Shown here: positions 1 to 50,402 of the stretch, piece after piece
Layout: each line of letters starts with the position of its first letter
How positions within the stretch are numbered: the first letter of the stretch is position 1
Source of the DNA: Candidatus Nealsonbacteria bacterium
Lineage (GTDB): Bacteria > Patescibacteriota > Minisyncoccia > Minisyncoccales > CAZKCU01
Assembly: GCA_047456305.1 (NCBI GenBank)
Contig: CP179888.1
Coordinates: 253,307 to 317,306 of the forward strand
Direction of reading: 5' to 3'
Length of the DNA stretch: 64,000 nucleotides
The notes under the pieces: model-generated
Told to the model about the DNA's origin: nothing
Seen by the model: only the letters and a program-made list of their open reading frames with translations
Databases searched by the model: none
Position numbers and translations under genes: made by a program

Positions 1-40
1 TAAAAAGAAAGAATTTCTAAAAAGAGAGGAAATTAGAACG

Positions 41-2434
41 ATGGAAAGAGATATTCTTAGGGCCCGAGAAGGAACAACAAGAAGAGAAATAGAAGAAAAA
101 AGAGTAAGAGAAGAAGCTAAAGGGGAAAAATTAGAGAGAGAAAGGCTGAAGAGAGAAGAAGAAAAAAAGATAAAAATCGAGGAAGAAAGGAGAAAGGCTG
201 AAGAGGAAACGAGAAAGGCTGAGGAAGCAAAAAGAAGAGCCGAAGCTCTAAAAAAAACTAAAGAAGATAAGAAATTAGAAGAAATAAGGAAGATAGCCGA
301 AGAAAGAAGAAAAGAAATAGAGGAAGCTAAGAAAACAGAAGAAGAAGTACGGAAAGCCAAAGGGGAAAAGAAAAAAAGAGGGGAAGAAGAGATAAAATTA
401 AAAGAAGAAAAAGCTGAATTAGAAAAAGAGCTTGAGAAGCTCCAGGAAAAGAAAGAGCCCTTAGAAACAGAAAGGAATCAGCTTTCAGAAAGAGAAGCTC
501 AATTGAAAAAGACCTTAGAGCAGGTCTTAGAAAAGGAGGCAGAGATTGAAAGAGAAGAAAAAGCTATTGAAGAAAAAGAAAAGGAAGCAAAAACAGCTAA
601 AGAAAGAAAAAAAATAGAAACAAAGAGATGGAAGATAGAAGAAAAAAGACGACAGATAGAAAAAGAAAGATGGGAATGGGAAGAAGAAATTAACAAAATA
701 AAAGGTCAATTAAGAGAGGCTGATTTGAGGTATCATAAACTCCTAAGAGAAGAGGAAGAAATTAAAAACGATAAGAGAAAAATTTCAGATAGGCAGGAAG
801 AGATAAGATTGGAGAAAGAAAAAGCTGAATTAGAAAAAGAGCTTGAGAAACTCCAGGAAAAGAAAGAGCCCTTAGAAACAGAAAAGGCTCAGTTTTCAGA
901 AAGAGAAACTCAATTAAGAAAGTCCTTAGACCAGGTCTTAGAAAGGGAGGCAGATATTGAAAGAGAAGAAAAAGCTATTGAAGAAAAGGAAAAGGAAACA
1001 AAAACAGCTAAAGAAAGAAGAGAAATAGAAACAAAGAGATGGAAGGTAGAAGAAAAAAGACGACAGATAGAAAAAGAAAGATGGGAATGGGAAGAAGAAA
1101 TTAACAAAATAAAAGGTCAATTAAGAGAGGCTGATTTAAAATATCAGAAGATAAAAGATAAAGAGTTAGACCTCCAAAAAAAGATAGAAGAGGCTAGCCG
1201 CTTATTAAAAAAAGATGAGATTGAGGAAAAAAGAGAAGAAACAGAAATTGAAAAGAGAAAAAAAGAGGAGTTTTTGCAAAAACTAGCTCAAGTTAAAGAG
1301 GCAGAAAAAGAAGAGGCAGAAAGATTAAAGAAAGAGGAAGAAGAAAAGGAAAAACTAAGAGAAGAGAGAAGAGAAAGGGAAGAAATTGAGGAAAAGAGAA
1401 AAAAAGAAATAGAAAGATTAAAATTGGAGGAGAAGCAAAGATTGGAAAAAACCAGAGCTGAATTTTTGGCAGAGAAAGAAGGTAAAGAAGTAGAGAAAGA
1501 AAAATTAGAAAAAGAGAAAATAAAAGAAAGATTATCAGAAATTCAAAAAAGAGAAGAAGTAGAAAGGAAAAAATTCTTAGAAAGAATTCAAGGTAAAAAG
1601 AAAGAAATAAAAGAGGTTCAAAGACCAGTAAAAGAAATTGAAGAGCCCACTGTTCCCACACAGCCTGCTGTTCCTTTCCGGCCAACCGAGATTTTCCGTC
1701 CTCTTCCTCAAAAACCCTCTCTGGGAGAGAAATTTTGGGCCAGATTTATAATTTTTTTCGTAATTTTGGCTATCTTAGCTGCAATTTCTACCTTCTGGTA
1801 TTGGTTCCTCTTTATCAGAAAACCACCGCTGCCGCCCTCCCCTCCTCCCCAAAAAGAAATTATTATTGTCCCAGAAATAGCTATTCCCGAATCTTTAATC
1901 TCGGTTGAAATAATTCGAACTTTCGAGATTACGAAATCCGAAGAGACTCTCATCTACCTTTCTCAGATTCTTAAAGAAGACTTAGGGGAAGACCAGTTTA
2001 CCAGAATTATAATAAAAGATTTAACTAAGAAAAAAGTTCCCGGCCTGAAAGAATTTTTGGATACTTTCCAGGCCAAAACTCCAGAAGATTTTTATCAAAA
2101 ATTAAGCGATGAGTTCACTTTGTTTATTTATTCCCAAAAAGAAGGCAACAGATTGGGCCTGGTGACGAAAATAGAGACAAAAGAAGGACTACCAGAAATA
2201 CTAAGATTCTGGGAAGATATAATGGAAACAGACCTATCAAATTTTTTCGCTTTCCTGGGCAAGGATAAACCAGCTCTCAAAGATTACTTTACTAAAACCG
2301 CTTACCATCAGGGAGTTATTCGTTGCCAGACTTTTACTGAGGAAGATTTTGAAGCTTGTTATTTAATAACAGATAGTCACTTCATTTTCACAAGCTCTTT
2401 GGAAAGTATGAAAAAAACAATTGATAAGTTGTAA
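41..2434 (+). CDS. Glu/Lys-rich coiled-coil protein with one TM helix and a C-terminal extracytoplasmic domain; possibly 5'-truncated by the window edge
   Basis: 797-aa ORF. The frame stays open from nt 2 upstream of ATG 41. About 540 aa of E/K/R low complexity, then a Pro-rich linker, then the hydrophobic segment FWARFIIFFVILAILAAISTFWYWFLF, then a ~200-aa globular tail. No family recognised. Confidence 0.7.
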   Translation: MERDILRAREGTTRREIEEKRVREEAKGEKLERERLKREEEKKIKIEEERRKAEEETRKAEEAKRRAEALKKTKEDKKLEEIRKIAEERRKEIEEAKKTEEEVRKAKGEKKKRGEEEIKLKEEKAELEKELEKLQEKKEPLETERNQLSEREAQLKKTLEQVLEKEAEIEREEKAIEEKEKEAKTAKERKKIETKRWKIEEKRRQIEKERWEWEEEINKIKGQLREADLRYHKLLREEEEIKNDKRKISDRQEEIRLEKEKAELEKELEKLQEKKEPLETEKAQFSERETQLRKSLDQVLEREADIEREEKAIEEKEKETKTAKERREIETKRWKVEEKRRQIEKERWEWEEEINKIKGQLREADLKYQKIKDKELDLQKKIEEASRLLKKDEIEEKREETEIEKRKKEEFLQKLAQVKEAEKEEAERLKKEEEEKEKLREERREREEIEEKRKKEIERLKLEEKQRLEKTRAEFLAEKEGKEVEKEKLEKEKIKERLSEIQKREEVERKKFLERIQGKKKEIKEVQRPVKEIEEPTVPTQPAVPFRPTEIFRPLPQKPSLGEKFWARFIIFFVILAILAAISTFWYWFLFIRKPPLPPSPPPQKEIIIVPEIAIPESLISVEIIRTFEITKSEETLIYLSQILKEDLGEDQFTRIIIKDLTKKKVPGLKEFLDTFQAKTPEDFYQKLSDEFTLFIYSQKEGNRLGLVTKIETKEGLPEILRFWEDIMETDLSNFFAFLGKDKPALKDYFTKTAYHQGVIRCQTFTEEDFEACYLITDSHFIFTSSLESMKKTIDKL
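386..1146 (+). repeat. Tandem duplication, 2 copies with a 411-nt (137-aa) period, inside the E/K-rich CDS
   Basis: gaagagata...aaagctgaattagaaaaagagcttgagaa at 386 recurs at 797. The protein blocks EKELEKLQEKKEPLETE...KERWEWEEEINKIKGQLREADL are nearly identical. Confidence 0.9.
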
Positions 2435-10387: not shown

Positions 10388-10807
10388 ATGCGGTTTCAAG
10401 TTCCTCAATTTATTGAAAAAGAGGCAAAAATAGTGGGACCTTTAACTTTCAAGCAGTTTCTTTATTTAGGAGCAGCCGGAGTAATTTTGTTTTTCCTTTA
10501 TTTTTATTTAGCAGCAAAAAGTCCTTTATCCTTTGCCTTAATTACCATATTTTTGGTAATCGGGGCTTTGGCTTTTGCTTTTTTAAAAATTGGCGGTCAG
10601 CCTCTTTTAAGTATTTTGCTAAAATTTTTGAATTTTTCTTTTTCTTCAAAAATTTATCTCTGGAAAAAGAAAGCAATTTCTCCAAAGATTATCAAAAAAG
10701 AAGAAAAACTCAAAAAAGAAGAGCCCTCTAAAGAGCCAACCTTAAAAGTTGCCGAAAAAAGCAAACTAAAGAAGTTATCAACTCAAATTGAAATGAGAAT
10801 GAGATAA
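10388..10807 (+). CDS. PrgI/VirB3-like small T4SS membrane protein
   Basis: N-terminus MRFQVPQFIEKEAKIVGPLTFKQFLYLG followed by two TM helices, typical of the PrgI family. Sits immediately upstream of VirB4. Confidence 0.65.
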   Translation: MRFQVPQFIEKEAKIVGPLTFKQFLYLGAAGVILFFLYFYLAAKSPLSFALITIFLVIGALAFAFLKIGGQPLLSILLKFLNFSFSSKIYLWKKKAISPKIIKKEEKLKKEEPSKEPTLKVAEKSKLKKLSTQIEMRMR

Positions 10808-10811
10808 CATT

Positions 10812-11456
10812 ATGGCACAGCCAACAACCCAACAATTTTTAGAAATCGACCAAATCAGGCAGGGTATTCTTATTCTAAAGAATAAAACTTTAAGAGGAGT
10901 TTTGATGGTTTCTTCTCTTAATTTTGCCTTAAAGTCTGAGGACGAACAGAATGCCATTTTGTATCAATTTCAAAGTTTTTTGAATTCTCTGGATTTTTCC
11001 TGCCAAATTGTCGCCCAATCCCGAAAACTTAATATCACAGGTTATCTTGAAAAATTAAAAGAGTTAGAGAAAACTCAAGAAAATGAACTTTTGAAAATGC
11101 AAACTGCTGAATACCACGAGTTTATACAACATTTAGTAGAGACCGGAGCTATTCTGACAAAGAATTTTTTTGTTGTCATTCCTTACACTCTTTTGGAATC
11201 TCAGGGATTTGCTGCTGAAGGAAAGAAATTACTAAAAATGCCCAAAATTCCTACCCTAACCGAGGAGAACTTCCAAAGATATAAAAGCCAACTTTGGCAG
11301 AGAATGGAATTTGTTGCCTTAGGTTTAAGAAGGTGTGGCCTTCAGGCTGTTCCCTTGACCACTCCTGAACTTATTGAACTTTTCTGGAGCTTACACCATC
11401 CTAAAGAAGCTGAGGTCGGTTACTACCCCGAACTTCCCGGAGAATTAGTTATTTAA
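10812..11456 (+). CDS. VirB4 N-terminal-domain-like protein (stand-alone)
   Basis: FLEIDQIRQGILILKNKTLRGVLMVSSLNFALKSEDEQNAILYQFQSFLNSLDF resembles the N-domain pattern of Gram-positive VirB4/TraE. 214 aa with no NTPase motif. Confidence 0.45.
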   Translation: MAQPTTQQFLEIDQIRQGILILKNKTLRGVLMVSSLNFALKSEDEQNAILYQFQSFLNSLDFSCQIVAQSRKLNITGYLEKLKELEKTQENELLKMQTAEYHEFIQHLVETGAILTKNFFVVIPYTLLESQGFAAEGKKLLKMPKIPTLTEENFQRYKSQLWQRMEFVALGLRRCGLQAVPLTTPELIELFWSLHHPKEAEVGYYPELPGELVI

Positions 11457-11459
11457 CTG

Positions 11460-11481
11460 AGCACATAATACTTTATGTGCT
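11460..11481. repeat. AGCACATAA/TTATGTGCT palindrome family, copy 1
   Basis: agcacataa-tact-ttatgtgct lies between the VirB4-N-like gene and virB4. Confidence 0.8.
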
Positions 11482-11498
11482 TCGGTTAAATTTTATTA

Positions 11499-13304
11499 AT
11501 GTTTATGATAAATTTTTTCAAAAAATTTTTAAGAAAGGGGCCAGAGGTCCAAGAGAAGATTTTTGAAGCTGGGGCAATTGGAATCAAAGACATTATTGCT
11601 CCGGCCTCTATTGAAGTAACTCAAAATTATCTCAAACTCGGAGAAAAACTGGCTAAATCTTTTTTTATTTTTTCCTATCCCAGATATCTAAGCACGGCCT
11701 GGTTTTCTCCGGTCATTAATCTGGACACTCCGATGGATATTTCTTTTTTCATCCACCCGGTTGATATGAGCCGGATTTTAAAGCGACTGAGGAAAAAGAT
11801 AACTGAAGTTCAGTCCGAAATTATGGAGAGAGAAGAAAAAGGATTAATTCGCGATCCAGTTTTGGAAATTGCCTACCGAGATTTAGAAGTCTTAAGAGAT
11901 AAGTTTCAGTCTGCCCAAGAAAGAATGTTTAGATTCGGCTTATATCTCACTATTTATGGCGATACCCAAGAAGAGCTGAGAGAGACTGAAACTATTTTGA
12001 GGTCAATTCTGGAAGGGAGATTAGTCTATATAAAACCAGCTCTCTTCCAACAAAGGGAAGGTTTTATTTCTACCTCCCCTTATGGTCTGGATTTGCTGCA
12101 AGTTCATACCCCAATGAATACTGAACCTCTATCCAGCTCCTTTCCCTTTATTTCTTTTGACCTGAGCTCTAATGAAGGAATTTTATACGGAATCAACCAA
12201 CACAACAATTCCCTAATTTTGTTTGATAGATTTTCTTTGGAAAATTACAACGAAGTTTTTTTCGGAGTAGCCGGCTCAGGGAAGTCATATTTGGTAAAAA
12301 TTGAAATTTTGCGTTCTTTGATGACGGGTGTCGATGTCATCGTAATTGACCCGGAAAACGAATACAAATTTTTGTCTGAGGCTGTTGACGGTTCTTTCTT
12401 TAATATTTCCCTGGCCTCAACAGACAGAATCAATCCTTTTGATTTGCCAATCCCAAGAGAGGATGAGAGACCGGCTGATGTCTTAAGATCAAACATTATG
12501 AATTTAGTTGGTTTATTAAGGATTATGTTGGGAGGTTTAAGTCCGGAAGAAGACGCAATTATGGACCGGGCCCTAACTGAAACTTACGCTGCAAAAGATA
12601 TTACCCCGGACTCTGATTTTTCAAAAATTACTCCTCCTTTGATGTCAGATTTAGAGCAGGTTTTAGAAACCATGGAGGGAGCTGAAGGTTTGGTTAGAAG
12701 ATTAAGAAAATTCACCAAAGGAACCTATGCTAACTTCTTTAACAATTATTCAAACATTTCAATGGAAAATAAATTTGTTGTTTTCGGAATCAGAGATATG
12801 GAAGAAGAATTAAGACCAATGGCTATGTTCATAATTATGAGGTATATCTGGAATAAAGTCAGGTCTGAGTTGAAAAAAAGAATTTTAGTTGTTGATGAGG
12901 CCTGGTGGTTAATGCAGACCGAGGATGGGGCTTCTTTCTTATATGGTCTTGTTAAAAGAGCCAGAAAATACTGGTTAGGGGTAACTACTATTACCCAGGA
13001 TGTTTCTGATTTTATGAGGTCTGACTATGGCCAGCCAATTATTAACAATTCCTCTTTGAAACTTTTAATGAAACAGTCTCCGGCAGTGATTGATTCTATT
13101 CAAAAGGTTTTTAACCTAACCGAGGAGGAAAAACTTCGCCTACTCGAGGCAGCAGTTGGAGAGGGAGTCTTTTTTGCTGGCCAAAAGCATGTGGCAATTA
13201 GAGTGGTCGCCTCTTATTCTGAAGATCAATTAATCACCACTGCCCCCGAAGAAATTCTAAGAATAAAAGAAGCCAAAAAAAGATTAGTTGAAGAAAAATT
13301 ATAA
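11499..13304 (+). CDS. virB4: VirB4/TrbE-family T4SS ATPase
   Basis: Walker A GVAGSGKSY, Walker B ILVVDEAWWLM, N-domain IAPASIEVTQNYLKLGEKLAKSFFIFSYPRYL. 601 aa. Confidence 0.85.
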   Translation: MFMINFFKKFLRKGPEVQEKIFEAGAIGIKDIIAPASIEVTQNYLKLGEKLAKSFFIFSYPRYLSTAWFSPVINLDTPMDISFFIHPVDMSRILKRLRKKITEVQSEIMEREEKGLIRDPVLEIAYRDLEVLRDKFQSAQERMFRFGLYLTIYGDTQEELRETETILRSILEGRLVYIKPALFQQREGFISTSPYGLDLLQVHTPMNTEPLSSSFPFISFDLSSNEGILYGINQHNNSLILFDRFSLENYNEVFFGVAGSGKSYLVKIEILRSLMTGVDVIVIDPENEYKFLSEAVDGSFFNISLASTDRINPFDLPIPREDERPADVLRSNIMNLVGLLRIMLGGLSPEEDAIMDRALTETYAAKDITPDSDFSKITPPLMSDLEQVLETMEGAEGLVRRLRKFTKGTYANFFNNYSNISMENKFVVFGIRDMEEELRPMAMFIIMRYIWNKVRSELKKRILVVDEAWWLMQTEDGASFLYGLVKRARKYWLGVTTITQDVSDFMRSDYGQPIINNSSLKLLMKQSPAVIDSIQKVFNLTEEEKLRLLEAAVGEGVFFAGQKHVAIRVVASYSEDQLITTAPEEILRIKEAKKRLVEEKL

Positions 13305-13321
13305 AGAAAATGTAATAAATT

Positions 13322-13762
13322 ATGGATGAATACGAAGTAAATGAGGGAGGAGCTCTGGCAGCTCCTAAAGGAGAGGTTTCGGGAGAAATTGAAGCCTTAG
13401 AGGAAGCAACAAAAAAAGTAGGAGCTCTTTTTAGCCCCGAAGGAATTATAATGCTCTCGATGGCGCTTTTAGTTGATGGCGGTGAGCTTTTGTTCGAGTT
13501 TATTCCCGGAGCTGGACAAATTATTTCAATCGCAATTGATATTTTTGCTGTTCTTTTTTTTGGCTTTTGGATGTGGTTTTTTCGCTCGAAAAGGGCAAAA
13601 ATTACTCCTAAAGCTGCAGTTAGCAGAGCTAAAGTATTACAATGGGGAAAAAGAATGAAATGGCTAAGGCCCTTATGTTTTCTTATTGAATTAATCCCAA
13701 TAGGTAGTAGTTTTCTTCCTTTCTGGATTTTAATAGTTTATCTTGAATTAGTTTATGAATAA
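13322..13762 (+). CDS. Small integral membrane protein (T4SS-locus associated)
   Basis: 146 aa with an acidic N-terminus and 3-4 TM helices. Overlaps the next gene by 8 nt. Confidence 0.55.
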   Translation: MDEYEVNEGGALAAPKGEVSGEIEALEEATKKVGALFSPEGIIMLSMALLVDGGELLFEFIPGAGQIISIAIDIFAVLFFGFWMWFFRSKRAKITPKAAVSRAKVLQWGKRMKWLRPLCFLIELIPIGSSFLPFWILIVYLELVYE

Positions 13763-15314
13763 AAAACAAAAGTTTTTTTTCTTTTTTCTTTTTTTTCTTT
13801 TTTTTATCTTTTGGGCTCATTTTGTTTTGGCAATTGAATTCCGGGCACCGGAAATAAATTATCCTTCTCTTCCTTTCCCTGGGGTTGATTCTCCCCAGGT
13901 TTTTCTTGAAGAAATTAAAGAAGGTAAAATCCCCGGAGAACAGGCTTTTCCTCTCTATGTTAAGTATTTCTATTATCTATTCTTAACGATTGCAGGTTTG
14001 TTGGCTCTTGGGACAATAATTTATGGCGGTTTTCTTTATTTAATTTCAGCTGGCGCCCCGGTTAAAATGATTGCTGCCAGAGAGCAAATTACCGGAGGGA
14101 TTTTAGGGCTGGTTATTCTACTTTCTTCTTATCTAATTTTGGCCACTATCAACCCCCAGCTGACAATCCTTCGGCTTCCCGGCTTAGAAAAAATTACCCT
14201 ACCAGAGATAGAGCTTCCTGAACCTGGTGAAAAAAAACTTCCAACCTATTTCCAGATTCCCCTCGGAATGATTATTGAAAAGACGGTTCTAAACGAAGAA
14301 GCGCAGGAAAAATTAGATTATATCTACCAAACAACAGAAGAGGCAGCAAAAGCGGCAGAAGAGTTATATGAGCTAAGCGAAGAAATATATTCTTTGGTTA
14401 TGAGCGCTGATTGCGGTAATTCAAGATGTCGTGATATCGACTGCTCACCATTTGGATGTACCGGAAAAGACAATCAATCTCAAATAAACACCGTAATAAA
14501 AGAAATACCTCTGGCAATTAAAGATTTAGAAGAAAAAACAAACGAGATATCAATTGCAAAAATCCTTTTAATTAATGACCTTTCTCAATTAGAAGCAGCC
14601 GGGCTTTTAATGAGTTTAGCTTCTGGAGTGTTTGAATATGGTACTCGATTAAATATCGAGTCTTTTCAGGAAATTGAAATTACTTCTTTCCCTGATTGGG
14701 AAGATATTGATATTAAGATGAATGATAAGATAGCTAAAGACCCAGTTACATTTTACTTAGACAAAGAAAGAAATGAACAAGAAATCTATCTCGCCTCAGT
14801 GCTTCGCTTGGCAGGAGACGCTGGTCTTCCGCCTGAGCCTTTGGGAGGTTGGCCAGAACCCCCTCCAGCCGAACCTGGTAAATTACAATGGCCGACTGCA
14901 ACAACAGAAGTAACAAGTGAATTTGGATGGCGCATTCATCCCATATATGGAGTACTAATGTTCCATAACGGTATCGATATTGGGGCGTCCTATGAACCAG
15001 TTTATGCAACTGCTGATGGAACAGTAATTTTTGCAGGGCTGCTTGGTGGATATGGTTATCTTGTAGTTATTAAACACGACGAGCTCGCAACTTTATATGC
15101 TCATTTAAGTAAATACTCTATCTCTGTCAAACGAGGAGATGGAGTGGAAGCTGGCCAACGAATTGCACTAAGCGGCAATACTGGTACAAGTACTGGTCCT
15201 CACCTTCATTTTGAAGTCCGCCATGATCCTTATGATTTAGCTAAGGACTTTTATACATATTCTCTTCTTCGACCTTTAAATCCATTAGGCTATTTGTCAA
15301 AGATAGAATATTAA
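13755..15314 (+). CDS. T4SS-pilin-like (TrbC/VirB2-type) N-domain fused to a Cys-motif linker and a C-terminal M23 metallopeptidase
   Basis: Signal peptide; pilin-like hairpin YVKYFYYLFLTIAGLLALGTIIYGGFLYLISAGAP...GILGLVILLSSYLILATINPQL. M23 motifs HNGIDIG, YAHLS and GNTGTSTGPHLHFEV. Confidence 0.8.
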   Translation: MNKKQKFFFFFLFFLFFIFWAHFVLAIEFRAPEINYPSLPFPGVDSPQVFLEEIKEGKIPGEQAFPLYVKYFYYLFLTIAGLLALGTIIYGGFLYLISAGAPVKMIAAREQITGGILGLVILLSSYLILATINPQLTILRLPGLEKITLPEIELPEPGEKKLPTYFQIPLGMIIEKTVLNEEAQEKLDYIYQTTEEAAKAAEELYELSEEIYSLVMSADCGNSRCRDIDCSPFGCTGKDNQSQINTVIKEIPLAIKDLEEKTNEISIAKILLINDLSQLEAAGLLMSLASGVFEYGTRLNIESFQEIEITSFPDWEDIDIKMNDKIAKDPVTFYLDKERNEQEIYLASVLRLAGDAGLPPEPLGGWPEPPPAEPGKLQWPTATTEVTSEFGWRIHPIYGVLMFHNGIDIGASYEPVYATADGTVIFAGLLGGYGYLVVIKHDELATLYAHLSKYSISVKRGDGVEAGQRIALSGNTGTSTGPHLHFEVRHDPYDLAKDFYTYSLLRPLNPLGYLSKIEY

Positions 15315-15335
15315 TCAAAAGCTGCTAACCAAAAT

Positions 15336-16223
15336 ATGAAAAGATTATTTTTTAAAAAAAACTTAATTTTAAAAACTTTTCTCCTTCTGTTTTTATTTAT
15401 TTCTCTTTTCTTATTTTCGAATTTCTTTTATAATCAAAGTAAGGGAATTTTAGCAGTAGAAGAGACCGAGGAAGTAGAAGAGGCCGAGGAAGAAGAAAAG
15501 GGAAGACTACTCTGCGGAAAGGAAATTCCGGTTGGAGAAGCAATGGAGAAAACCGGGGAATTGTTGGAAGAAATAACAAGGGAACTTGAAAAAATTGAAT
15601 CAAATTCTTATTTTCTCATTAAAACTCAAGAAGACATGGAAGAACTGGCTAAAAATTGCACTATGGAAAACTGTACACCCAAATGTGAAGCTATTACTAT
15701 AAAAGGTGCTACTGTTGCGTGTATTCACAAACCTTGCCAGGGTGACCCTTGCGAAGAAAGAGAAAAAATAGAAAAATTATTTGAGAAAATTACTCGTCTT
15801 AATAAAGAAATTCAGGAAGGTAAAGATAAAATATATAAATTAATTTATAAAAGCGTAGAGCCTCTTTGCATAGAAGGAAATGAAGATATCAGAACTCCTG
15901 GGGAAAAAATTCTATGTGCTACTAATCCAGCTTGTTGGGAATTGACACGGGAAACGCTTCTATCTCTTTTGCCGGAAGATTTCTTAGAAAAAATAGGGCT
16001 CTGCCCAAGCATAACAGTCCAAAAAGCTATAAGCAGAAAATTAAATCTATCAAGGGGTGAATTTGAGAAATGCTATGTGCCGGCAGCTGAGTTAGAAAAG
16101 ATTGGGAAAATATTACTCAATTGCGATACAGTTATGAGCCAAAACCTGCCCCGAGAAACAAAAACAGAAGAAAAAGGAATACCTGTCTGCACCAGTTTGC
16201 ACAATTGGTTTTGTTGCTACTAA
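15336..16223 (+). CDS. Secreted Cys-rich coiled-coil protein
   Basis: N-terminal signal/TM segment, acidic stretch and 18 Cys. The motif NCTMENCTPKCE...CIHKPCQGDPC resembles SADCGNSRCRDIDCSPFGCTG in the middle of the preceding protein. Confidence 0.6.
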   Translation: MKRLFFKKNLILKTFLLLFLFISLFLFSNFFYNQSKGILAVEETEEVEEAEEEEKGRLLCGKEIPVGEAMEKTGELLEEITRELEKIESNSYFLIKTQEDMEELAKNCTMENCTPKCEAITIKGATVACIHKPCQGDPCEEREKIEKLFEKITRLNKEIQEGKDKIYKLIYKSVEPLCIEGNEDIRTPGEKILCATNPACWELTRETLLSLLPEDFLEKIGLCPSITVQKAISRKLNLSRGEFEKCYVPAAELEKIGKILLNCDTVMSQNLPRETKTEEKGIPVCTSLHNWFCCY

Positions 16224-16228
16224 AAAAT

Positions 16229-17332
16229 ATGTCAAATCTTAAAAAAAACGTTTTTGCTCTAATTTTCATCACTTCTTTTGTTTTATTTTTGGGAAGTTCT
16301 CTTTTTATTCAAGCAGCCGAAGAAGAAAGACCACTTGAAATCGAATATCCAGAAATTGGTGAATGGCGGCCAGAAACAGTAGAACAAGCTGTTCTTCCAG
16401 AATACATAAAATATATCTTTAATTTCGCCGTCGCAATTGCCGGCTTAGTTGCTTTTGGGGCCTTAGTTTATGGTGGGTTTCGTTATATAACCTCAGTTGG
16501 CGCGCCAATTGTCCAGACAGAGGCTAAAGACCAAATTTTTGCCGGCATTATAGGGCTTGTTATTTTACTTTCTTCTTATTTAATCTTAACTACTGTTAAT
16601 CCCCAATTAGTAATCTTGACTTTGGAAAAACCTGAATGGCCAGAACTTCCAACTGATTTGCCAGGAGTTTACCTTACTTACCTTATTGACGGAGAGGATG
16701 TAGTAAAATCTTATACTCAAAATGCATCTTCTTTGGATATGCCTAGTGATAGAATGACAGACGTCAAAATAGTCAATCCAATTGATTATGACTATGAAAC
16801 AGAAGAGAAAAAACCGGGAAAATACTACTATGGGGCAATCCTTTTCCCACAGACCGTCTATATAGGAGAACCGCCTGAAATTTGTCGTAGTATAATCCCT
16901 GGGGAAGTGGTAGAAGAGTGGACTTGTCGAATTTCTAAAAAAGCTGCTTCACTGGTTGTCTTTCGAGAAGTTGAAAAAACTGATGGCGAAGTCACACTTT
17001 GTACAGGGACAGAAGGGACAGGAGATTATTGTCACACCTGGGGTTTCACCCGGGATGGGGCGACGGACAACGAGTGGAAGGGATTAGAAAAGCTATCCAA
17101 AAAGGTTTGGTCAATTAAGATTGAAGGAAATTATTTGTTAATTCTTAAGGGTGTGGTCGAAGGTGCGTGGTATACTCGTGATACGGTATACCTCGCACGC
17201 TTTCAAGGCCCGGGTGAATGGCCGGACCTCACAAAATATACAATAAATCAATGTGGTCATCGGTCCTGGAATTTTTGGCATTACTACCAGGACTCTTGTG
17301 CCACCGAGTATATGATTATCCCAACGTATTAA
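16229..17332 (+). CDS. T4SS-pilin-like N-domain protein with a Cys-containing C-terminal beta-rich domain
   Basis: Start moved to ATG 16229 (MSNLKKN...). The N-domain YIKYIFNFAVAIAGLVAFGALVYGGFRYITSVGAP...GIIGLVILLSSYLILTTVNPQL is paralogous to the N-domain of 13755..15314. Confidence 0.75.
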   Translation: MSNLKKNVFALIFITSFVLFLGSSLFIQAAEEERPLEIEYPEIGEWRPETVEQAVLPEYIKYIFNFAVAIAGLVAFGALVYGGFRYITSVGAPIVQTEAKDQIFAGIIGLVILLSSYLILTTVNPQLVILTLEKPEWPELPTDLPGVYLTYLIDGEDVVKSYTQNASSLDMPSDRMTDVKIVNPIDYDYETEEKKPGKYYYGAILFPQTVYIGEPPEICRSIIPGEVVEEWTCRISKKAASLVVFREVEKTDGEVTLCTGTEGTGDYCHTWGFTRDGATDNEWKGLEKLSKKVWSIKIEGNYLLILKGVVEGAWYTRDTVYLARFQGPGEWPDLTKYTINQCGHRSWNFWHYYQDSCATEYMIIPTY

Positions 17333-18632: not shown

Positions 18633-18648
18633 TTTTATTTATGGTTCA

Positions 18649-18704
18649 CCCCGTTAAATAATTCCGCTTTCAGCGGAATTGCTGCAAAGCAGCATTTAAC
18701 GGGG
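18649..18704. repeat. Nested three-way hairpin element, copy A
   Basis: 11-bp outer stem ccccgttaaat/atttaacgggg encloses the hairpins aattccgc-tttca-gcggaatt and gctgc-aaa-gcagc. Contains the yidD stop codon. Confidence 0.85.
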
Positions 18705-18908
18705 TAAATCTACTCCCCCAGGATTCCAAGGGTGACACTTTAATATCCTCTTTATTCCTTTTTTGGTGCCTATTACCGGGCCGTATCTCTTAATAGTTTG
18801 GTAGGTGTATTCTGAGCAACTGGGATAAAAACGGCATCTTTTACCAAAGTTTGGCGAAATAAAAATTTGATAAAATTTAATAATTTTTAAAATTATTTTT
18901 CCGAACAT
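18696..18908 (-). CDS. yidD: Membrane protein insertion efficiency factor YidD
   Basis: FYQIFISP...[19 protein letters not shown]...[17 protein letters not shown] 18908 preferred over the TTG at 18929. Confidence 0.9.
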
Positions 18909-18917
18909 TTTTATCGG

Positions 18918-18939
18918 AGCACATAACAATTTATGTACT
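18918..18939. repeat. AGCACATAA/TTATGTGCT palindrome family, copy 2
   Basis: agcacataa-caat-ttatgtact lies between rnpA and yidD. Confidence 0.75.
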
Positions 18940-19454: not shown

Positions 19455-19456
19455 AA

Positions 19457-19515
19457 TTCAAGAATATATATTTTTATTTCTTAGCGAATCAAGGTTCTCG
19501 CCGAAGGCGAGGTTC
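19457..19515 (-). repeat. Promoter-hairpin cassette, copy 1 (upstream of rpmH)
   Basis: Minus strand reads gaacCTCGCCttcGGCGAGaaccTTGATTcgctaa-N-tatatattcttgaattATG. Shares about 35 nt with the copy at 20260. Confidence 0.8.
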
Positions 19516-20259: not shown

Positions 20260-20316
20260 TTCAAGATTATATATTTATACATTAGCGAATCAAGGTTCTC
20301 GCCGAAGGCGAGGTTC
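20260..20316 (-). repeat. Promoter-hairpin cassette, copy 2 (upstream of the trmH-like gene)
   Basis: Minus strand reads gaacCTCGCCttcGGCGAGaaccTTGATT-16 nt-TATAAT-cttgaa-ATG. Confidence 0.85.
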
Positions 20317-25045: not shown

Positions 25046-26482
25046 CTACTCTCCTTTAATTACAGCCAAGGGAACTAATTTTGCCACTTTTCTTGAGAGT
25101 CCAGCATTGTGAACTACTTCTACAACCTCATTAACATCTTTGTAAGCCAAGGGCGCTTCTTCAGCAATTCCTCGTATTGACCGGCACTTCACTAAAATCC
25201 CTTTTTCTTTTAATCTTCTAATCACCTCTTCTCCTCTAACCGCTCTCATTGCTGCATGTCGGGACATTGCCCTTCCGGCGCCGTGAGCTACGGTATGCCA
25301 AGCTTCTTTTGATTCTTCAATACCAGCTAAAACATACGAGGGAGTTCCCATTGAGCCAGGCAGGATAGCAGGTTGACCGGTTTCTCTATATTTCTCTGGA
25401 ATCTCAGGATGTCCTGGCGGAAAAGCTCTTGTTGCTCCCTTCCGATGAACTATTAATTTCATTTTTTTGCCATCAACCTCGTGTTCCTCAACTTTAGCAA
25501 TATTATGGGCAACATCGTAAAGTAATTTAAGTCCTCCCTTTCCCAAGACTGACTGCCAAACTTTTCTAATATAGTGGGTAATCATATGTTTATTCGACCA
25601 AGAATAGTTTGCCCCAGCACACATTGCCTTAAAATATCTTTGACCTTCTGAAGAATTGAATGGAACGCAGGCTAATTCTCTGTCTGGTAATTTTATTCTA
25701 TACTTTAACATAGCTTGCATCATTATTCTTATGTAATCGGTAGCAATTTGATGGCCAAGTCCACGAGACCCACAATGGACCATTACTACTATTTGGTCTT
25801 TAAATAGACCGAAAACTTCGGCTATCTTTTCATCAAAAACCTCTTCAATTTTTTCAATGCTACAAAAATGATTCCCACTCCCCAAAGTCCCAACTTGATC
25901 TCTTCCTCTCATTTTTGCTCGTTCTGAAACACAAGAAGCATCAGCTTCAATCATTCTCCCTTTCTCTTCGCAATTTTCAATATCCTCCTTCTCGCCATAC
26001 CCTTTTTCTACTAAATAAGGAACTCCTCCTTCTAAAATCTTATCTATTTCTTCAATTGAAAGTTTTATTTTTCTTCCTCGACCCAAACCCGAGGGAACCT
26101 CTCCCTGAATCTCAGTAGCTAATTTCTCTAAATAAGGTTTAATTTCTTTCTCAGTATATTCTGATTTTAATAATCTAATAGAGCACGAAATATCATAACC
26201 CACTCCGCCGGGTGATATTACCCCCTCAGGATATCTTGTAGCTGCTACCCCGCCGATAACAAAACCATAGCCGGTATGAGCATCGGGCATAGCTAAAGAA
26301 TATTTTACAATTCCCGGCAATGAAGCAACATTGATGATTTGCTTTATTGCGTCAGGTTCTATTTTTTCTAATAGTTTTCCTGAAACATAAAGTCTTGCCG
26401 GGACTCGCATATCAGCTCTGAAAGATTTCGGTATCTCCCATAAATAATCAGTTATTTTTTTGAAATCTTTTTTAGAAACCAT
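25046..26482 (-). CDS. rtcB: RNA-splicing ligase RtcB (3'-phosphate/5'-OH RNA ligase)
   Basis: PDAHTGYGF, GYDISC, GSGNHF, HCGSRGLGHQ, HRKGAT, PGSMGTPSY, HGAGR. 478 aa. Confidence 0.95.
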   Translation of the reverse strand: MVSKKDFKKITDYLWEIPKSFRADMRVPARLYVSGKLLEKIEPDAIKQIINVASLPGIVKYSLAMPDAHTGYGFVIGGVAATRYPEGVISPGGVGYDISCSIRLLKSEYTEKEIKPYLEKLATEIQGEVPSGLGRGRKIKLSIEEIDKILEGGVPYLVEKGYGEKEDIENCEEKGRMIEADASCVSERAKMRGRDQVGTLGSGNHFCSIEKIEEVFDEKIAEVFGLFKDQIVVMVHCGSRGLGHQIATDYIRIMMQAMLKYRIKLPDRELACVPFNSSEGQRYFKAMCAGANYSWSNKHMITHYIRKVWQSVLGKGGLKLLYDVAHNIAKVEEHEVDGKKMKLIVHRKGATRAFPPGHPEIPEKYRETGQPAILPGSMGTPSYVLAGIEESKEAWHTVAHGAGRAMSRHAAMRAVRGEEVIRRLKEKGILVKCRSIRGIAEEAPLAYKDVNEVVEVVHNAGLSRKVAKLVPLAVIKGE

Positions 26483-29288: not shown

Positions 29289-29693
29289 TTAAATGTCAAA
29301 CAAAACGGTAGTTTGCCAGGTGCCATCTTTTTTTTGATGGATGTCTAAACTATGGTATGTGACGGCTTTGATGTCTTCGCCAAAGCTTTCTACTTTTTGG
29401 CCAACGAGTTCTGCTTTGAGTCCGGTATCAATGAATTTTTTAAAATTTACCTCGCTGTAAACTTCTTTATTAACTTGCGTTAAATATAGAACCTCGCTTA
29501 AAAAATCAACTAAAAGAGAAGACAACTCAGGAGAGCTTATTTTAATTTCTCTTTTTACTTTTCCTGGTAAAATTTCTGGTCTTTGGTTTTCTGTCATCGC
29601 TAAGAGCATATTTAAAAAAAGCTCTTCTTTATTTTTCCCAAAAGCTCTAATTTTTAAATCAGCTTTATGCTCTAAAATCTCGAATTTTTTCAT
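29289..29693 (-). CDS. Archease (RtcB activator/chaperone)
   Basis: FEILEHKADLKIRAFGKNKEELF...AVTYHSLDI. 134 aa. Overlaps the upstream Mur-ligase gene by 4 nt. Confidence 0.85.
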   Translation of the reverse strand: MKKFEILEHKADLKIRAFGKNKEELFLNMLLAMTENQRPEILPGKVKREIKISSPELSSLLVDFLSEVLYLTQVNKEVYSEVNFKKFIDTGLKAELVGQKVESFGEDIKAVTYHSLDIHQKKDGTWQTTVLFDI

Positions 29694-36886: not shown

Positions 36887-37255
36887 TTAATTACCTATTT
36901 GTTTTTTAACTTTATTAATTACCTCTTGGGGGTCGAATTCGGTTTTAATCAGCCAATCTTTCGCTCCCAACTCCTGAGCTTTATCAATTTCCACTGGCTG
37001 ACCAGAATTAGATATGACGATCACTGGAATTTTCTTCAACTCCCTGTCTTTTTTCATCTCTTCCATCACTTCAAAGCCTCCCATCTTTGGCATAATAATA
37101 TCAAGAAGAATAAGGTCGGGTTTTACCTCTTTCATTTTTCCCAGCCCCTCTTGCCCGTCTCTAGCCACTGAAGTTTCATATCCCTCAGCAGTTAGTTTCC
37201 TCTGGAGAAGGTCAATCATAATCTCTTCGTCTTCGACAATTAAAATTTTCTTCAT
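36887..37255 (-). CDS. Stand-alone response-regulator receiver domain (CheY-like)
   Basis: ILIVEDEE, DLILLDIIMPKMGG, PVIVISN, WLIKTEF. 122 aa. Separated from the next receiver gene by 1 nt. Confidence 0.88.
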   Translation of the reverse strand: MKKILIVEDEEIMIDLLQRKLTAEGYETSVARDGQEGLGKMKEVKPDLILLDIIMPKMGGFEVMEEMKKDRELKKIPVIVISNSGQPVEIDKAQELGAKDWLIKTEFDPQEVINKVKKQIGN

Positions 37256-37257
37256 AA

Positions 37258-37356
37258 TTCAAGATTATATATTTACCCTGTTAAATGCTGCTTTGCAGCA
37301 ATTTCGTCTTTGACGAAATTATTTAACAGGGTGAATACCTTAGCGAATCAAGATTC
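37258..37356 (-). repeat. Promoter-hairpin cassette, copy 3, interrupted by nested hairpin element copy B
   Basis: ttcaagattatatattt (-10 half) and ttagcgaatcaagattc (-35 half) are separated by the 56-nt element at 37276..37331. Confidence 0.8.
37276..37331. repeat. Nested three-way hairpin element, copy B (inverted relative to copy A)
   Basis: Outer stem ccctgttaaat/atttaacaggg encloses gctgc-ttt-gcagc and aatttcgtc-ttt-gacgaaatt. Confidence 0.85.
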
Positions 37357-37364
37357 TTATTATT

Positions 37365-38975
37365 TTACCCTGTTTTTAAAAATTCTCCAAATTTCTCTTT
37401 AATGGGTAAAGTAAAATGAAAGGTTGAACCTTTATTTTCTTCAGATTCAAACCAAATTTTTCCGCCATGGGCTTCAATAATGTTTTTAGTAATGAAAAGA
37501 CCAAGACCAGAACCTTCGGTTTCCATTCTCATTACATTGGCTGCTCGGAAAAACTTGGTAAATACTCTCGCTTTTTGGTTTTTTGGAATCCCCACCCCAG
37601 TATCTTTTATAGAAACCTCTATTTCCTTTTTAACACGTTTTAAAGAAACTGTCACCTTCCCACCAGCCAGGGTATACCTTATAGCATTGTCAAAAAGGTT
37701 TTGAATGGCCAGCCTCATTTTTTCGACATCAATCAAAACTAATGGTAATTTCTTTTCTGGTTTTTTAAACTCGACTTTAATTCCTCTTTTTTTACTCTCT
37801 TCTTTATAAGAGTTTACCACAAATTGGGCCACTACCTCAATATCAGCCCGGGTTGGTTTATAAAGATATCTTCCCTCCTCAATCCTGGTTACATTTAAAA
37901 GGTCGTTAATTAAAGTAATCATCCTTTCATTAGAACCGTAAGTTTTTTCAATAAAGTTTCTCTGTTCTTTGGTTGTCTCGCCAAGGTCTCCGTCGAGAAA
38001 CATTCTCAAAGTCCATTTTATTGCAGACAAGGGAGTCCTTAGCTGATGAGCGGCTATCGAAACAAACTCAGTTTTCATTCTCTCTATCCTCTTTTCCCTG
38101 GTAACATCGTGTAAAATAACCAGAGTTCCTAATTTCTCTTCTTCTCTCATTATAGGAATAGTAGAAACTTCTAAAACTAAATCTTCTTTGGTTTGAAATT
38201 CTTTTCTAAAAATTCCTTTAATTTCTGGTCCTAAAAGCTTCGCCAAAGATGCAAGAGCAGGGATATTACTTAATTCTAAAATTGGCCTATTTATTAAATC
38301 TTTGGCTCCAATATTAAAAAAAACTTCTGCCTGGGGATTAATTAATGCTAAATTATTTTTCTCGTCAAAAAGAAATAATCCATCAGTAAAATTGGTAATT
38401 ATTGCCTGGGTCTTATTCTTCTCTTCCTCTGTCGCTTTTAGAGCTTCCTTTATATCTTCCAAAATATTCAACAAAGCCCTGCCCGAAGCCTCTAAATCTT
38501 TAGTCTTTCCTACCAGTTCTTTAGTTTTTTCTCTTACTTTTTTTTCAAGTTCCTCCTGAAATTTTTTTAATACGCTAATATTAAAAAGAGCAAAAAAATA
38601 TCCTATCAAATTTCCCTTCTCGTCTTTTCTGAATTGGCCAGAAACATTAACTGGGATTTTTTTTCCATCTTTTGTCAAAAGTGTCATTTCTCTGATAATT
38701 CGTTTCTTTTTGCTAAGAATTTCTTCTTCTAAAGTCTTAACTCTTCTTTTCTCTAAAAATAAAAAGCTTGTTTCCTTTCCTACTATTTCCATCTCATTAT
38801 AACGGGTCAAATCTTGAAAGGCCCGATTAATGCCAATAATAACATCTGCCGGATTAACTATAAAAACCGGCAGAGGCAGGAACTCAGAGAACTCCTCAAT
38901 ATACCTTTCCAAGCTCTCTAAGTCTTCTCTGGTCTTTTGATACTCTAATTCTAAGGATAATCTTTTTCCAGGCAT
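37365..38975 (-). CDS. PAS-domain sensor histidine kinase
   Basis: Two PAS-like regions, H-box FVSIAAHQLRTPL, N-box NLFDNAIRY, G-boxes DTGVGI and GSGLGL. Confidence 0.88.
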   Translation of the reverse strand: MPGKRLSLELEYQKTREDLESLERYIEEFSEFLPLPVFIVNPADVIIGINRAFQDLTRYNEMEIVGKETSFLFLEKRRVKTLEEEILSKKKRIIREMTLLTKDGKKIPVNVSGQFRKDEKGNLIGYFFALFNISVLKKFQEELEKKVREKTKELVGKTKDLEASGRALLNILEDIKEALKATEEEKNKTQAIITNFTDGLFLFDEKNNLALINPQAEVFFNIGAKDLINRPILELSNIPALASLAKLLGPEIKGIFRKEFQTKEDLVLEVSTIPIMREEEKLGTLVILHDVTREKRIERMKTEFVSIAAHQLRTPLSAIKWTLRMFLDGDLGETTKEQRNFIEKTYGSNERMITLINDLLNVTRIEEGRYLYKPTRADIEVVAQFVVNSYKEESKKRGIKVEFKKPEKKLPLVLIDVEKMRLAIQNLFDNAIRYTLAGGKVTVSLKRVKKEIEVSIKDTGVGIPKNQKARVFTKFFRAANVMRMETEGSGLGLFITKNIIEAHGGKIWFESEENKGSTFHFTLPIKEKFGEFLKTG

Positions 38976-41620: not shown

Positions 41621-43003
41621 ATGCCAGAAGTTTCAAAAAAAATTACAGGTCTAATAGAAATTTCTCCCAAAATACTTGCTGAAACTCAAAAGAAAATAAA
41701 AAATATTTCTGATTTTAAGGAAAAGATTGAAGAGTTTTTAAAAAAGAGTGTCTCGGAAATTTTAGAAGTTATTTTGGGAGGGGGAATAAGTCTCGATGTC
41801 TCTGACATTCACATTGAGCCAGAAGAAAATCAAGCTAAAATCCGAGCCAGAATTGATGGAATCTTACAAGATGTAATAATTTTTGATTTAAAAACATATC
41901 AAACCCTTCTCTCTCGGATTAAGCTTGTTTCTGGAATTAAATTAAATATTACTGATCGACCCCAGGATGGGAGATTCTCTATTGTAATGCCACCAGCCCG
42001 CCCAAGTTTTGCAAAACAAAATTTGGGTGGGCCATCTGAGCCAATTGAAATTAGGGCCTCAACCTTGCCAGCTGAGCATGGAGAATCAATTGTCCTGAGA
42101 ATTTTGAACCCAAAAGGCTTAATTGAAATTGAGGAATTAGGGGTGAGAAAAGATTTATTAGAAATTTTTAAAAAGGAAATAAAAAGGCCGAATGGAATGA
42201 TTATTGTTACCGGGCCTACCGGCTGCGGGAAAAGTACAACTCTATATGCCTTTTTAAAAACAATCCAAAAACCAGAGATTAAAATTATAACTATTGAAGA
42301 CCCTATTGAGTATCATTTAAAAGAGATTTCCCAGACTCAAATTTCTCCGGAAAAAGGTTATGATTTTGCCTCAGGTCTCAAATCCATTATGCGCCAAGAC
42401 CCTGATGTAATTTTAGTAGGAGAAATAAGAGATATGGAAACCGCCAAGATTAGTCTCCAGGCAGCCGTAACCGGCCATTTAGTTTTAACTACCTTGCATA
42501 CTAATGATGCTGCTGGAACAGTGGTCAGGTTGGAAGCCTTGGGAGAAAAACCAGTAAACATTGCTCCGGCAATAAACATGGCTGTCGCCCAAAGATTGGT
42601 CAGAAAAGTTTGCCAGAAATGCCTGAAGCTTGAAAAAATTTCTTCGCTTGATTTTAAAAAAATTAAAAAAGCCCTCAAGGAAATCCCAAAGAAAATAATT
42701 AATCCTCCTAATGGGGTTTCTCCACTATTGAAGGGCAAAAGTTCTGCTGCCTTAAAAATCCCTCAAGTTAAAGGGTGTAAAGATTGTAATTTTACAGGTT
42801 TCAGGGGCCGAATCGGGATTTTTGAGGCTTTTTTAGTTGATAATGAGATGGAAAAATTTATTCTAACTTCGCCTTCAATTTCAGCCCTAAGAGAAAAAGC
42901 TATAAAAAAAGGAATGCTCACTATGTACCAGGATGGAATAATAAAGGTCTTAGAAGGAATTACTACTATCAAAGAGGTAGAAAGAGTAACCGGAATGCAA
43001 TGA
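41621..43003 (+). CDS. GspE/PilB-family type II/IV secretion (pilus assembly) ATPase
   Basis: PQDGRF, Walker A GPTGCGKST, Asp box, Walker B ILVGEIRD, His box TGHLVLTTLHTND, tetracysteine CQKC...CKDC. Confidence 0.9.
   Translation: MPEVSKKITGLIEISPKILAETQKKIKNISDFKEKIEEFLKKSVSEILEVILGGGISLDVSDIHIEPEENQAKIRARIDGILQDVIIFDLKTYQTLLSRIKLVSGIKLNITDRPQDGRFSIVMPPARPSFAKQNLGGPSEPIEIRASTLPAEHGESIVLRILNPKGLIEIEELGVRKDLLEIFKKEIKRPNGMIIVTGPTGCGKSTTLYAFLKTIQKPEIKIITIEDPIEYHLKEISQTQISPEKGYDFASGLKSIMRQDPDVILVGEIRDMETAKISLQAAVTGHLVLTTLHTNDAAGTVVRLEALGEKPVNIAPAINMAVAQRLVRKVCQKCLKLEKISSLDFKKIKKALKEIPKKIINPPNGVSPLLKGKSSAALKIPQVKGCKDCNFTGFRGRIGIFEAFLVDNEMEKFILTSPSISALREKAIKKGMLTMYQDGIIKVLEGITTIKEVERVTGMQ
41996..42032. 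repeat. 37-nt near-perfect palindromic element inside the pilB-like CDS
   Basis: gcccgcccaagttttg-caaaa-caaaatttgggtgggc forms a 16-bp stem. Same family as 58271..58305. Confidence 0.85.
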
Positions 43004-50197: not shown

Positions 50198-50255
50198 TAT
50201 AGTTATAGGTAATGGGTAAAACTATTTTTTTAAATAGATTAGTCAAAAGAAAACT

Positions 50256-50342: not shown

Positions 50343-50402
50343 TTTAATACCATGCCTTTTTCACAAATTGACCAAGGAAATTTTTAGCAAAAGGGTAAAA
50401 AC

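Follow-up and report, generated by a model that had tools for sequence, protein, structure and literature searches.

The 64,000-nucleotide stretch analysed here in full (the window; positions 253,307 to 317,306 of contig CP179888.1 from a Candidatus Nealsonbacteria bacterium) carries two copies, A and B, of a short palindromic element, which are very probably non-autonomous, selfish 60-bp DNA insertions belonging to a large family with shared arms. [quoted passage not shown] No description of it was found in Rfam or in literature searches on MITEs and REPs of the candidate phyla radiation (CPR) and on T-shaped palindromes. Literature matches to the literal sequence were primers and coincidences only and were rejected, a match to a Picrophilus plasmid being itself a primer. 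The element enters as a precise block, usually just 5' of YAAR (mostly TAAA), with the target sequence extending its stem, and in either orientation it occupies sites between genes, gene ends (where the TAA stop comes from one of its arms) and in-frame positions within genes.

The first-pass annotation had placed two 56-nt copies, about 85% identical and in opposite orientation, at 18649..18704 and 37276..37331. Both were recovered at these coordinates, the true unit being 60 bp and the identity over it 49/60 (82%), and the differences do form compensatory pairs. The full inserted unit consists of TTC plus 57 nt, 5'-TTCACCCYGTTAAAT-[hairpin][hairpin]-ATTTAACRGGG-3'. Copy A reads ACCCCGTTAAAT / AATTCCGCTTTCAGCGGAATT / GCTGCAAAGCAGC / ATTTAACGGGGT over 18648-18705, and copy B (37275-37332) is the reverse complement of copy A with changes. 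The two units and the parts of copy A are as follows.

18645..18704, + strand: copy A, full 60-bp unit TTCACCCCGTTAAAT-H1-H2-ATTTAACGGGG, bounded by comparison with L124 and L127, where the site is empty, and with L125 and L126, where it is filled
18648..18659, + strand: left arm ACCCCGTTAAAT of copy A, forming the 5' half of the outer stem and unchanged throughout the family alignment
18660..18680, + strand: hairpin H1 of copy A, 9-bp stem and 3-nt loop, 5/9 pairs covarying
18681..18693, + strand: hairpin H2 of copy A, GCTGC-AAA-GCAGC, from folding and covariation
18694..18705, + strand: right arm ATTTAACGGGG of copy A with a T from the target, together the 3' half of the outer stem
37276..37335, - strand: copy B, full 60-bp unit, on the strand opposite to copy A

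On each strand of each copy, a 12-bp outer stem surrounds a 9-bp and a 5-bp hairpin and leaves 0 unpaired bases at the three-way junction; an outer stem of 11 bp around two hairpins had been described before, and the outermost A-T pair now added takes one of its bases from the target. The minimum free energy of the copies under RNA parameters is -31 to -37 kcal/mol, as against -8 to -13 in shuffled sequences (z -7.9 to -10; 0/200 shuffles fold as well), and DNA folding parameters return the same three-way junction for both copies. Chance would yield the arm pattern 0.00 times in the window, where it was found twice, while a covariance model of family members, run over the 64-kb window, matched copies A and B only.

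Homologues of YidC assign the window to Candidatus Nealsonbacteria, and insertion of copy A can be followed at the junction of yidD and yidC, a region which was compared with five relatives.

18696..18929, - strand: yidD, with its last three codons (L-P-R) and the stop TAA within copy A, as the first-pass annotation had noted; PF01809 YidD was found in L001
17880..18632, - strand: yidC, starting 12 nt downstream of copy A

The site is empty in L124 (YidC 89% identical) and L127, where yidD ends ...GAC TTG CCT TAA and yidC starts 3-4 nt further on, and it is filled in the window, in L126 and in L125 (85% identical). Excision of 18645-18704 in silico yields ...GTA GAT TTA CCA TAA, which is the ancestral VDLP-stop of YidD. 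Copy A cut short and re-terminated yidD, and displaced yidC to 60 nt from the yidD stop. The empty site in the closest relative is also compatible with precise loss.

The histidine kinase and the first response regulator (HK-RR) flank copy B, in agreement with its earlier placement, and the element separates the two halves of a promoter cassette that recurs in the window.

37365..38975, - strand: PAS histidine kinase, located upstream of copy B and coding as far as its 3' end ...ACAGGGTAA
37346..37351, - strand: TTGATT, the -35 hexamer of the cassette that copy B splits
37264..37269, - strand: TATAAT, the -10 hexamer of the split cassette; the ATG of the response regulator follows after 8 nt, a layout of the leaderless type
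36887..37255, - strand: first response regulator, downstream of copy B
20266..20293, - strand: intact paralogous cassette 2, TTGATT-16-TATAAT, upstream of a SpoU methylase gene; the empty-site comparator
19463..19492, - strand: intact paralogous cassette 1, TTGATT-18-TATATT, upstream of rpmH

When 37276-37335 is excised in silico, the HK-RR spacer becomes CTTGATTCGCTAAGGTATAAATATATAATCTTGAATTATG, a TTGATT-16-TATAAT promoter, the spacer of which (CGCTAAGGTATAAATA) is identical at 15/16 positions to that of cassette 2. Since excision restores the ancestral end of YidD at site A and an intact promoter at site B, both copies are clean 60-bp insertions devoid of target-site duplication. The split of the cassette had been offered as direct evidence of insertion, and this reading needs a partial correction: the split itself is real, but relatives with 87-96% identical kinases have just 10-12 nt from the kinase stop to the regulator start, so that the whole unit of ~101 nt (cassette plus element) is new at HK-RR in the window lineage. 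Judging from this comparison, the event at the locus was the arrival of a cassette-element composite rather than of the element alone; copy B is carried within a mobile promoter cassette, parting its -35 from its -10 hexamer, and the response-regulator gene is probably expressed by read-through from the kinase gene. The composite also occurs upstream of unrelated genes in the metagenome contigs L141, L145, L149 and L147, with the element flanked by the -35 half (...TTGATTCGCTAAGGTA or a close variant) and the -10 half (TAAATATATAAT...). The sequence CAGGGTAAAAT upstream of copy B was considered as a degenerate element end and rejected, as relatives show it to be the conserved 3' end of the kinase gene.

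The cassette occurs on the - strand at 19455-19512, 20260-20313 and 37256-37360 in the form (hairpin CTCGCC-TTC-GGCGAG)-AACCTTGATTCGCTAA-N-TATAAT-CTTGAA(TT)-ATG, and in each case (rpmH, the SpoU methylase gene and the response regulator) it abuts the start codon. Its -10 hexamer lies just 6-8 nt from the ATG, which suggests leaderless mRNAs, and its absence from the HK-RR junction of close relatives suggests that the cassette itself is mobile or copied. The same junction holds a different insertion in L132 (4112-4243) and L133 (4088-4189), which repeats the first ~8 response-regulator codons and forms a hairpin with a TCACTTCGCTC loop; the junction is a hot spot for insertion. A degenerate, polymorphic copy of the element is also present in L133, between its two response regulators.

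Beyond the window, a single scan of 185,579 species genomes with the pattern ACCCYGTTAAAT-N30-50-ATTTAACRGGGT, for which about 0.05 chance matches are expected by our rough estimate, returned at least 119 loci with the same 12-bp arms. The element is therefore far from limited to the two copies from which it was first recognised, the family running to hundreds of members, and its description as an inserted structured repeat is borne out by this number, by folding that no shuffled sequence equals and by the filled and empty versions of the same site in close relatives. The matches listed, to which the counts of copies, hairpins and gene contexts in the following refer, come from many classes of Patescibacteria and from several metagenome-assembled genomes (MAGs) of Omnitrophota and WOR-3, with several contigs each, along with MAGs of Calditrichaceae, Stahlbacteria, Desulfobacterales and Bacteroidales. 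They comprise 130 copies, 125 of them unique. Across the family the element measures 55-75 bp and its arms are strictly conserved over 11-15 bp; the arms pair perfectly over 11-12 bp (CCCYGTTAAAT / ATTTAACRGGG), while the inner hairpins vary freely and yet remain paired. A perfect three-way junction with 0 unpaired junction bases is formed by 83 of the 98 parsable copies. The 152 hairpins have 93 distinct stem sequences, and triloops make up 114 of the 152 loops, mainly C-AAA-G and C-GAA-G with their complements. The Y/R arm pair covaries (T-A in 97 copies, C-G in 23, mismatched in 10), G-T pairs account for 13 of 1012 stem pairs (1.3%), and in a uniform subset of 14 sequences 10 pairs are altered on both sides, a number reached by 0/500 shuffles. 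Seventeen distinct sites, both window copies included, carry the H2 subfamily of copy A; one copy of the window subfamily was also seen in a 23S rRNA intervening sequence (L143 1072-1107 and L154 3979-4002), with the rRNA resuming a few bases further on, at model position 2655.

Abundance and form vary considerably within the family. Unbiased loci from close relatives have a density of ~3 copies per 75 kb, and the covariance model detects further diverged copies, up to 4 per 8 kb. The variants include single-hairpin forms, forms of 100-148 nt that retain the junction, short versions with arms 7-8 nt apart, tandem copies 2 nt apart and nested copies; in L138 and L144, for instance, a complete element (TGCCCTGTTAAAT...ATTTAACAGGGCA) stands in place of the hairpin arm of another. 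Three copies lie within 2 kb in L067. In genomes of the Paceibacteria/Nomurabacteria type, the three-way junction (3WJ) forms the centre of a palindromic cassette of ~130 nt, GAGCGAAGCGAATATAATTTTCTTA[3WJ]GATGATTTTTATAGTCGCTTCGCTCCTTAAAAATCAATCATG, the right end of which keeps a constant distance of 36-42 nt to the ATG in unrelated genes (NusA, DnaJ, TopA, L14 and others); such loci are L025, L028, L029, L066, L068, L075, L086, L092, L111, L122 and others. A class with an unstructured interior ('class 2') occurs in WOR-3 and related MAGs (L026, L038, L039, L042, L048, L053, L067, L070, L078, L099, L118 and L120), and its copies are often set between direct copies of a GGACGCAGATT motif that is itself repeated in those intergenic regions. 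A 9-bp target duplication in the WOR-3 copies was considered and rejected: the ACGCAGATT repeats are often missing or unequal on the two sides, which points to a local motif rather than to a duplication. Runs of N (masked sequence) directly adjoin an element arm in L018 (5347-5446) and L120 (2783-2800).

With respect to neighbouring genes, 84 contexts are tandem (co-directional), 13 divergent and 10 convergent. Some 23 copies (~18%) include the stop codon of the gene upstream of them, and 12 copies (~10%) lie in frame inside genuine genes, where they add ~20 amino acids of the form HPVK-x(12-16)-FNRV or, in a second frame, TLLN...LTG. Pfam domains that span the insert or are split by it are Amidase (GatA), RrnaAD (KsgA), Ribosomal_L18p, DNA_pol3_alpha (DnaE), RecG_wedge, Glycos_transf_1 (GT1), DsbD_2, ThiI, DNA_pol3_delta2 (HolB) and an S-adenosylmethionine (SAM) methyltransferase. 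Of the three frames in which the arms can be read, two are open on both strands, while the third meets an immediate TAA, and the length is divisible by three in 61 of the 125 unique copies (p = 2.5e-4). As all intragenic copies retain an open frame, the element is translated and not removed from the RNA. For the same reason excision at the RNA level followed by RtcB ligation was rejected, although RtcB, Archease and RtcA are all encoded in the window.

The element acts at the DNA level and not at the RNA level, and this conclusion follows from its random orientation, the equal folding of its sense and antisense strands and the scarcity of G-T pairs noted above. In co-directional contexts the orientations relative to transcription number 28 vs 18 when scored by hairpin order and 16 vs 12 when scored by the AATT hairpin; the comparison of folding energy between sense and antisense strands gives 33 vs 36 (Wilcoxon p = 0.14), and that of G-U pairs 67 vs 69. 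A cis-acting structured RNA, in which the three-way junction in the mRNA would be a processing site, a 3'-end stabiliser or an operon terminator, is consequently quite improbable, even though the RNA fold is very stable, the covariation is strong, most copies lie between co-directional genes and are hence transcribed (the 84 tandem contexts, ribosomal-protein operons among them) and one copy lies within a 23S rRNA intervening sequence. The first-pass annotation had hinted at a processing or termination site, and this suggestion fares poorly in the absence of any strand bias or sense-strand excess of G-U pairs. No T-run follows the stem (AAA follows it, and GAA on the other strand), and the terminator scan of the window flagged only the inner hairpin H2 of copy B, on the + (antisense) strand, leaving the whole element unflagged on either strand. 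Rfam likewise contains no match for the element: at the gathering threshold the sole match was tRNA-Arg, and by E-value the best was a spurious miRNA model with 22 bits against a cut-off of 70. Furthermore, copy B is located in a promoter spacer, and the copies within open reading frames (ORFs) are translated rather than cut from the RNA.

The position of copy B raises another explanation, according to which the element is a functional part of a promoter, its arms serving as the operator of a conserved DNA-binding protein or the whole as a supercoiling-sensitive cruciform switch; extrusion of the 58-nt palindrome would return the -35 and -10 hexamers to a spacing of 18 nt. Copy B and at least four other copies do occupy the same position between the -35 and -10 of one cassette type, the Paceibacteria-type copies keep their constant 36-42 nt upstream of unrelated start codons within the ~130-nt palindromic cassette, and WOR-3 copies sit between direct ACGCAGATT motifs. 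Nevertheless, most copies lie outside such cassettes and many overlap stop codons or sit in coding domains, copy A occupies a junction at which the spacer of relatives is 3-4 nt, the intact cassettes appear from their sequence to work without the element, and presence or absence varies between close relatives, all of which makes a promoter function unlikely as the general explanation. An integron attC-like or Xer/dif-like site for a tyrosine recombinase was also weighed, given that the arm GTTAAAT/ATTTAAC fits the GTTRRRY/RYYYAAC core consensus and resembles the XerD arm TTATGTTAAAT, that some copies cluster (as in L067) and that short versions have arms 7-8 nt apart. This idea is largely refuted by the reversed order of the heptamers, with GTTRRRY at the 5' side and RYYYAAC at the 3' side, and it becomes highly improbable when it is added that the element has neither an unpaired central spacer nor extrahelical bases, that clustering of the neighbouring ORFs revealed no integrase gene near any copy, that the copies are scattered among housekeeping genes and inside ORFs instead of cassette arrays, and that no common crossover dinucleotide fits both window junctions.

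Regarding the mode of insertion, no target-site duplication is present at the two reconstructed sites (the orthologous yidD-yidC junction and the paralogous cassette), and the base after GGG together with the next AA(A) belongs to the target. Where the search pattern left this base free, the right flank reads TAAA, CAAG, CAGG, CTAA or TTAA; overall it conforms to YAAR, with TAAA in most copies and CAAG in three. Which side bears the TTC does not correlate with hairpin order (22 vs 19). In L125, the interior of the element at the orthologous yidD-yidC site is inverted relative to the window and L126, with identical flanks, and single hairpin loops flip as well (for example, GTCAAAGAC vs GTCTTTGAC). 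This flip-flop is most simply read as in-place inversion between the inverted arms, or as a result of template switching; a second, independent insertion there may also account for it. A serine-recombinase model was rejected, because its 2-bp crossover would need GG at site A and TA at site B.

These features can be combined in a mechanism in which the conserved arms would be the recognition sites of a trans-acting enzyme and the inner hairpins would matter as structure only. The element would probably move as folded single-stranded DNA, a T-shaped hairpin, which an HUH-type or similar enzyme would cut and paste without target duplication, and its interior and single hairpin loops would be able to flip in place. 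Single-strand cut-and-paste by a trans-acting HUH-type enzyme, as in IS200/IS605 insertion sequences (ISs) and in REPs with their REP-associated tyrosine transposases (RAYTs), is favoured by the duplication-free insertion, by the compact folding of either strand with DNA-favoured triloops and by the short preferred target, and is advanced here as a tentative proposal. More speculative is the suggestion that all these elements are substrates of one enzyme, HUH-type or new, common to Patescibacteria, Omnitrophota, WOR-3 and other uncultivated phyla, which would need no more than the 15-bp arms of a folded single-stranded three-way junction for recognition, insert the element without duplication and permit an interior flip-flop like that of parvoviral inverted terminal repeats (ITRs); we regard this as a rather doubtful possibility. 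If it were true, the family would be a cross-phylum counterpart of the Rickettsia palindromic elements, remodelling essential proteins and moving promoter cassettes in the most streamlined bacterial genomes known.

Several observations weigh against mobile, selfish DNA of this kind. No transposase, HUH nuclease or recombinase was found beside the copies (848 neighbouring ORFs among the matches listed, when clustered, yielded housekeeping families alone), and no transposase, recombinase, RAYT or HUH protein among the 50 of 62 window ORFs that were scanned against Pfam, the window being 64 kb of a 639,534-bp contig. The scanned ORFs comprise a cluster resembling a type IV secretion system (T4SS), RtcB/Archease/RtcA, dnaA-dnaN, an intein-bearing protein and housekeeping genes. 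The genes bracketed by two copies encode an ABC ATPase, YbeY, S19, a sigma factor, Pth and similar proteins, ribosomal-protein operons included; no arm pair flanks an ORF, as a parent IS would require, in ~1 Mb of loci, where the longest versions measure 100-148 nt. In the viral contigs of IMG/VR the arm pattern had 0 matches, and blastn of the element against plasmids and phages gave nothing. Since no gene for such an enzyme was found, we can only infer the enzyme and the single-strand mechanism. The orientations of copies A and B are opposite within one replichore (from the position of dnaA, 50403-51752, and GC skew), and the side of the TTC shows no strand bias relative to gene direction in the family (16 vs 10), a misfit with the lagging-strand bias of IS200/IS605; the arms, moreover, are true terminal inverted repeats, unlike the ends of IS200/IS605. 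About 30 copies, mostly from WOR-3, combine the same arms with an unstructured interior of 38-45 nt that is conserved within the group, so the hairpins are not essential everywhere. In many genomes the element has a fixed place within promoter-like cassettes, which could mean a host function and not pure selfishness.

Among known systems, the closest in behaviour are the RPEs, palindromic repeats of ~150 bp that have no known transposase, lie in frame within housekeeping genes and are translated (PMC10969869). The present element shares with them short palindromes and in-frame insertion in unrelated housekeeping genes of reduced genomes, and differs in its length of 55-75 bp, its T-shaped two-hairpin core, its strictly conserved arms with a free interior and its occurrence in several phyla. 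Because size and host range differ (the two were compared by description), the same behaviour is proposed and not membership. To our knowledge, RPEs are confined to Rickettsia.

The likely chemistry is closest to that of REPs, REPINs and palindromes derived from IS200/IS605. A REP is a palindrome of 20-40 nt with a GTAG (or CGTC) tag at one end, a REPIN consists of two inverted REPs, and the RAYT (a Y1 HUH enzyme) gene is single-copy and has REPs on its flanks; IS200/IS605 elements lack terminal inverted repeats and have a strong lagging-strand bias. The REP/REPIN-RAYT system and the MITEs derived from IS200/IS605 are likewise small intergenic palindromes that fold as single strands, produce no target duplication and occur in high copy number among housekeeping operons, and one trans-acting gene could serve all copies, as with REP and RAYT. 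The present element has no GTAG or CGTC tag, however, and its two hairpins are unrelated in sequence rather than being inverted REPs. It agrees with IS200/IS605 in the absence of target duplication, the short target (YAAR) and an empty site compatible with precise loss, but not in strand bias tied to replication, which is missing, or in its inverted-repeat arms. Classical MITEs (Correia/NEMIS, ERIC, RUP, Chunjie) create target-site duplications and derive from recognisable ISs with the same ends. Like them, the present element has terminal inverted repeats, no coding capacity and many dispersed copies with insertion polymorphism, and it may carry or disrupt promoters and sit within operons; unlike them, it has no target-site duplication at the two reconstructed sites and no parent IS in the ~1 Mb of loci.

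Two further comparisons concern structure. The ITRs of adeno-associated virus (AAV) are ~145 nt long and terminate a linear viral genome, and Rep nicks them at a defined site. The likeness is a structural analogy only, comprising the T-shaped A-B-B'-C-C'-A' arrangement, two inner hairpins with AAA/TTT triloops and flip and flop states of the interior, whereas the present element is chromosomal and internal, with 0 matches in viral contigs; we know of no Rep gene for it. Integron attC sites have the order 5'-RYYYAAC ... GTTRRRY-3', an unpaired central spacer and extrahelical bases. As in attC, a palindrome conserved in structure and variable in sequence retains short cores of the GTTRRRY/RYYYAAC type as its sole conserved letters; the core order is nonetheless reversed here (GTTAAAT ... 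ATTTAAC), and the central bulge, extrahelical bases, cassette arrays and integrase are lacking.

The genomes of Patescibacteria (CPR) are usually described as streamlined. In some of them the family reaches up to one copy per 2-3 kb, and it extends into ribosomal-protein operons, GatA, KsgA, L18, DnaE and RecG, which would provide a second and much broader case of the phenomenon in Rickettsia, namely selfish DNA inside protein-coding genes. Filled and empty sites, together with the flip and flop states, offer clean markers for the population genetics of uncultivated lineages, and gene callers will be misled by the altered stop codons and the 20-aa inserts. The family also points to a mobilising enzyme with a simple conserved DNA site and duplication-free chemistry, which could interest biotechnology, and the repeated leaderless-type promoter cassette appears itself to be mobile in the window lineage.

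Other features of the window deserve mention. An unrelated, second family of palindromes is present at 41996-42032 and 58270-58306 as a single hairpin of ~37 nt (GCCCGCCCAAGTTTTGCAAAACAAAATTTGGGTGGGC), in opposite orientation and with compensatory changes. An 832-aa ORF at 54222-56720, with an intein splicing domain and a LAGLIDADG homing endonuclease, is the sole other mobile-type feature among the 50 scanned ORFs. RtcB RNA ligase (25046-26482), Archease (29289-29693) and the RNA 3'-phosphate cyclase RtcA (57556-58653) are encoded together in what is a very small genome. The 5' end of the window (1-1600) codes for a long, repetitive protein rich in Glu and Lys (ORF 2-2434, 810 aa, without a Pfam match), the gene of which contains an internal duplication of 300 nt (381-680 vs 792-1091, 92% identical). 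The genes dnaN-dnaA are located at 49067-51752 and the cumulative GC skew has its minimum near 42-50 kb; the origin is therefore probably at ~42-52 kb. The rpmH-rnpA-yidD-yidC group lies ~30 kb from dnaA and adjoins the T4SS-like cluster at 10388-17332 (PrgI, a TraG-like ATPase, an M23 peptidase and a T4SS pilin), while in the relatives L127 and L128 dnaA adjoins rpmH or rnpA.

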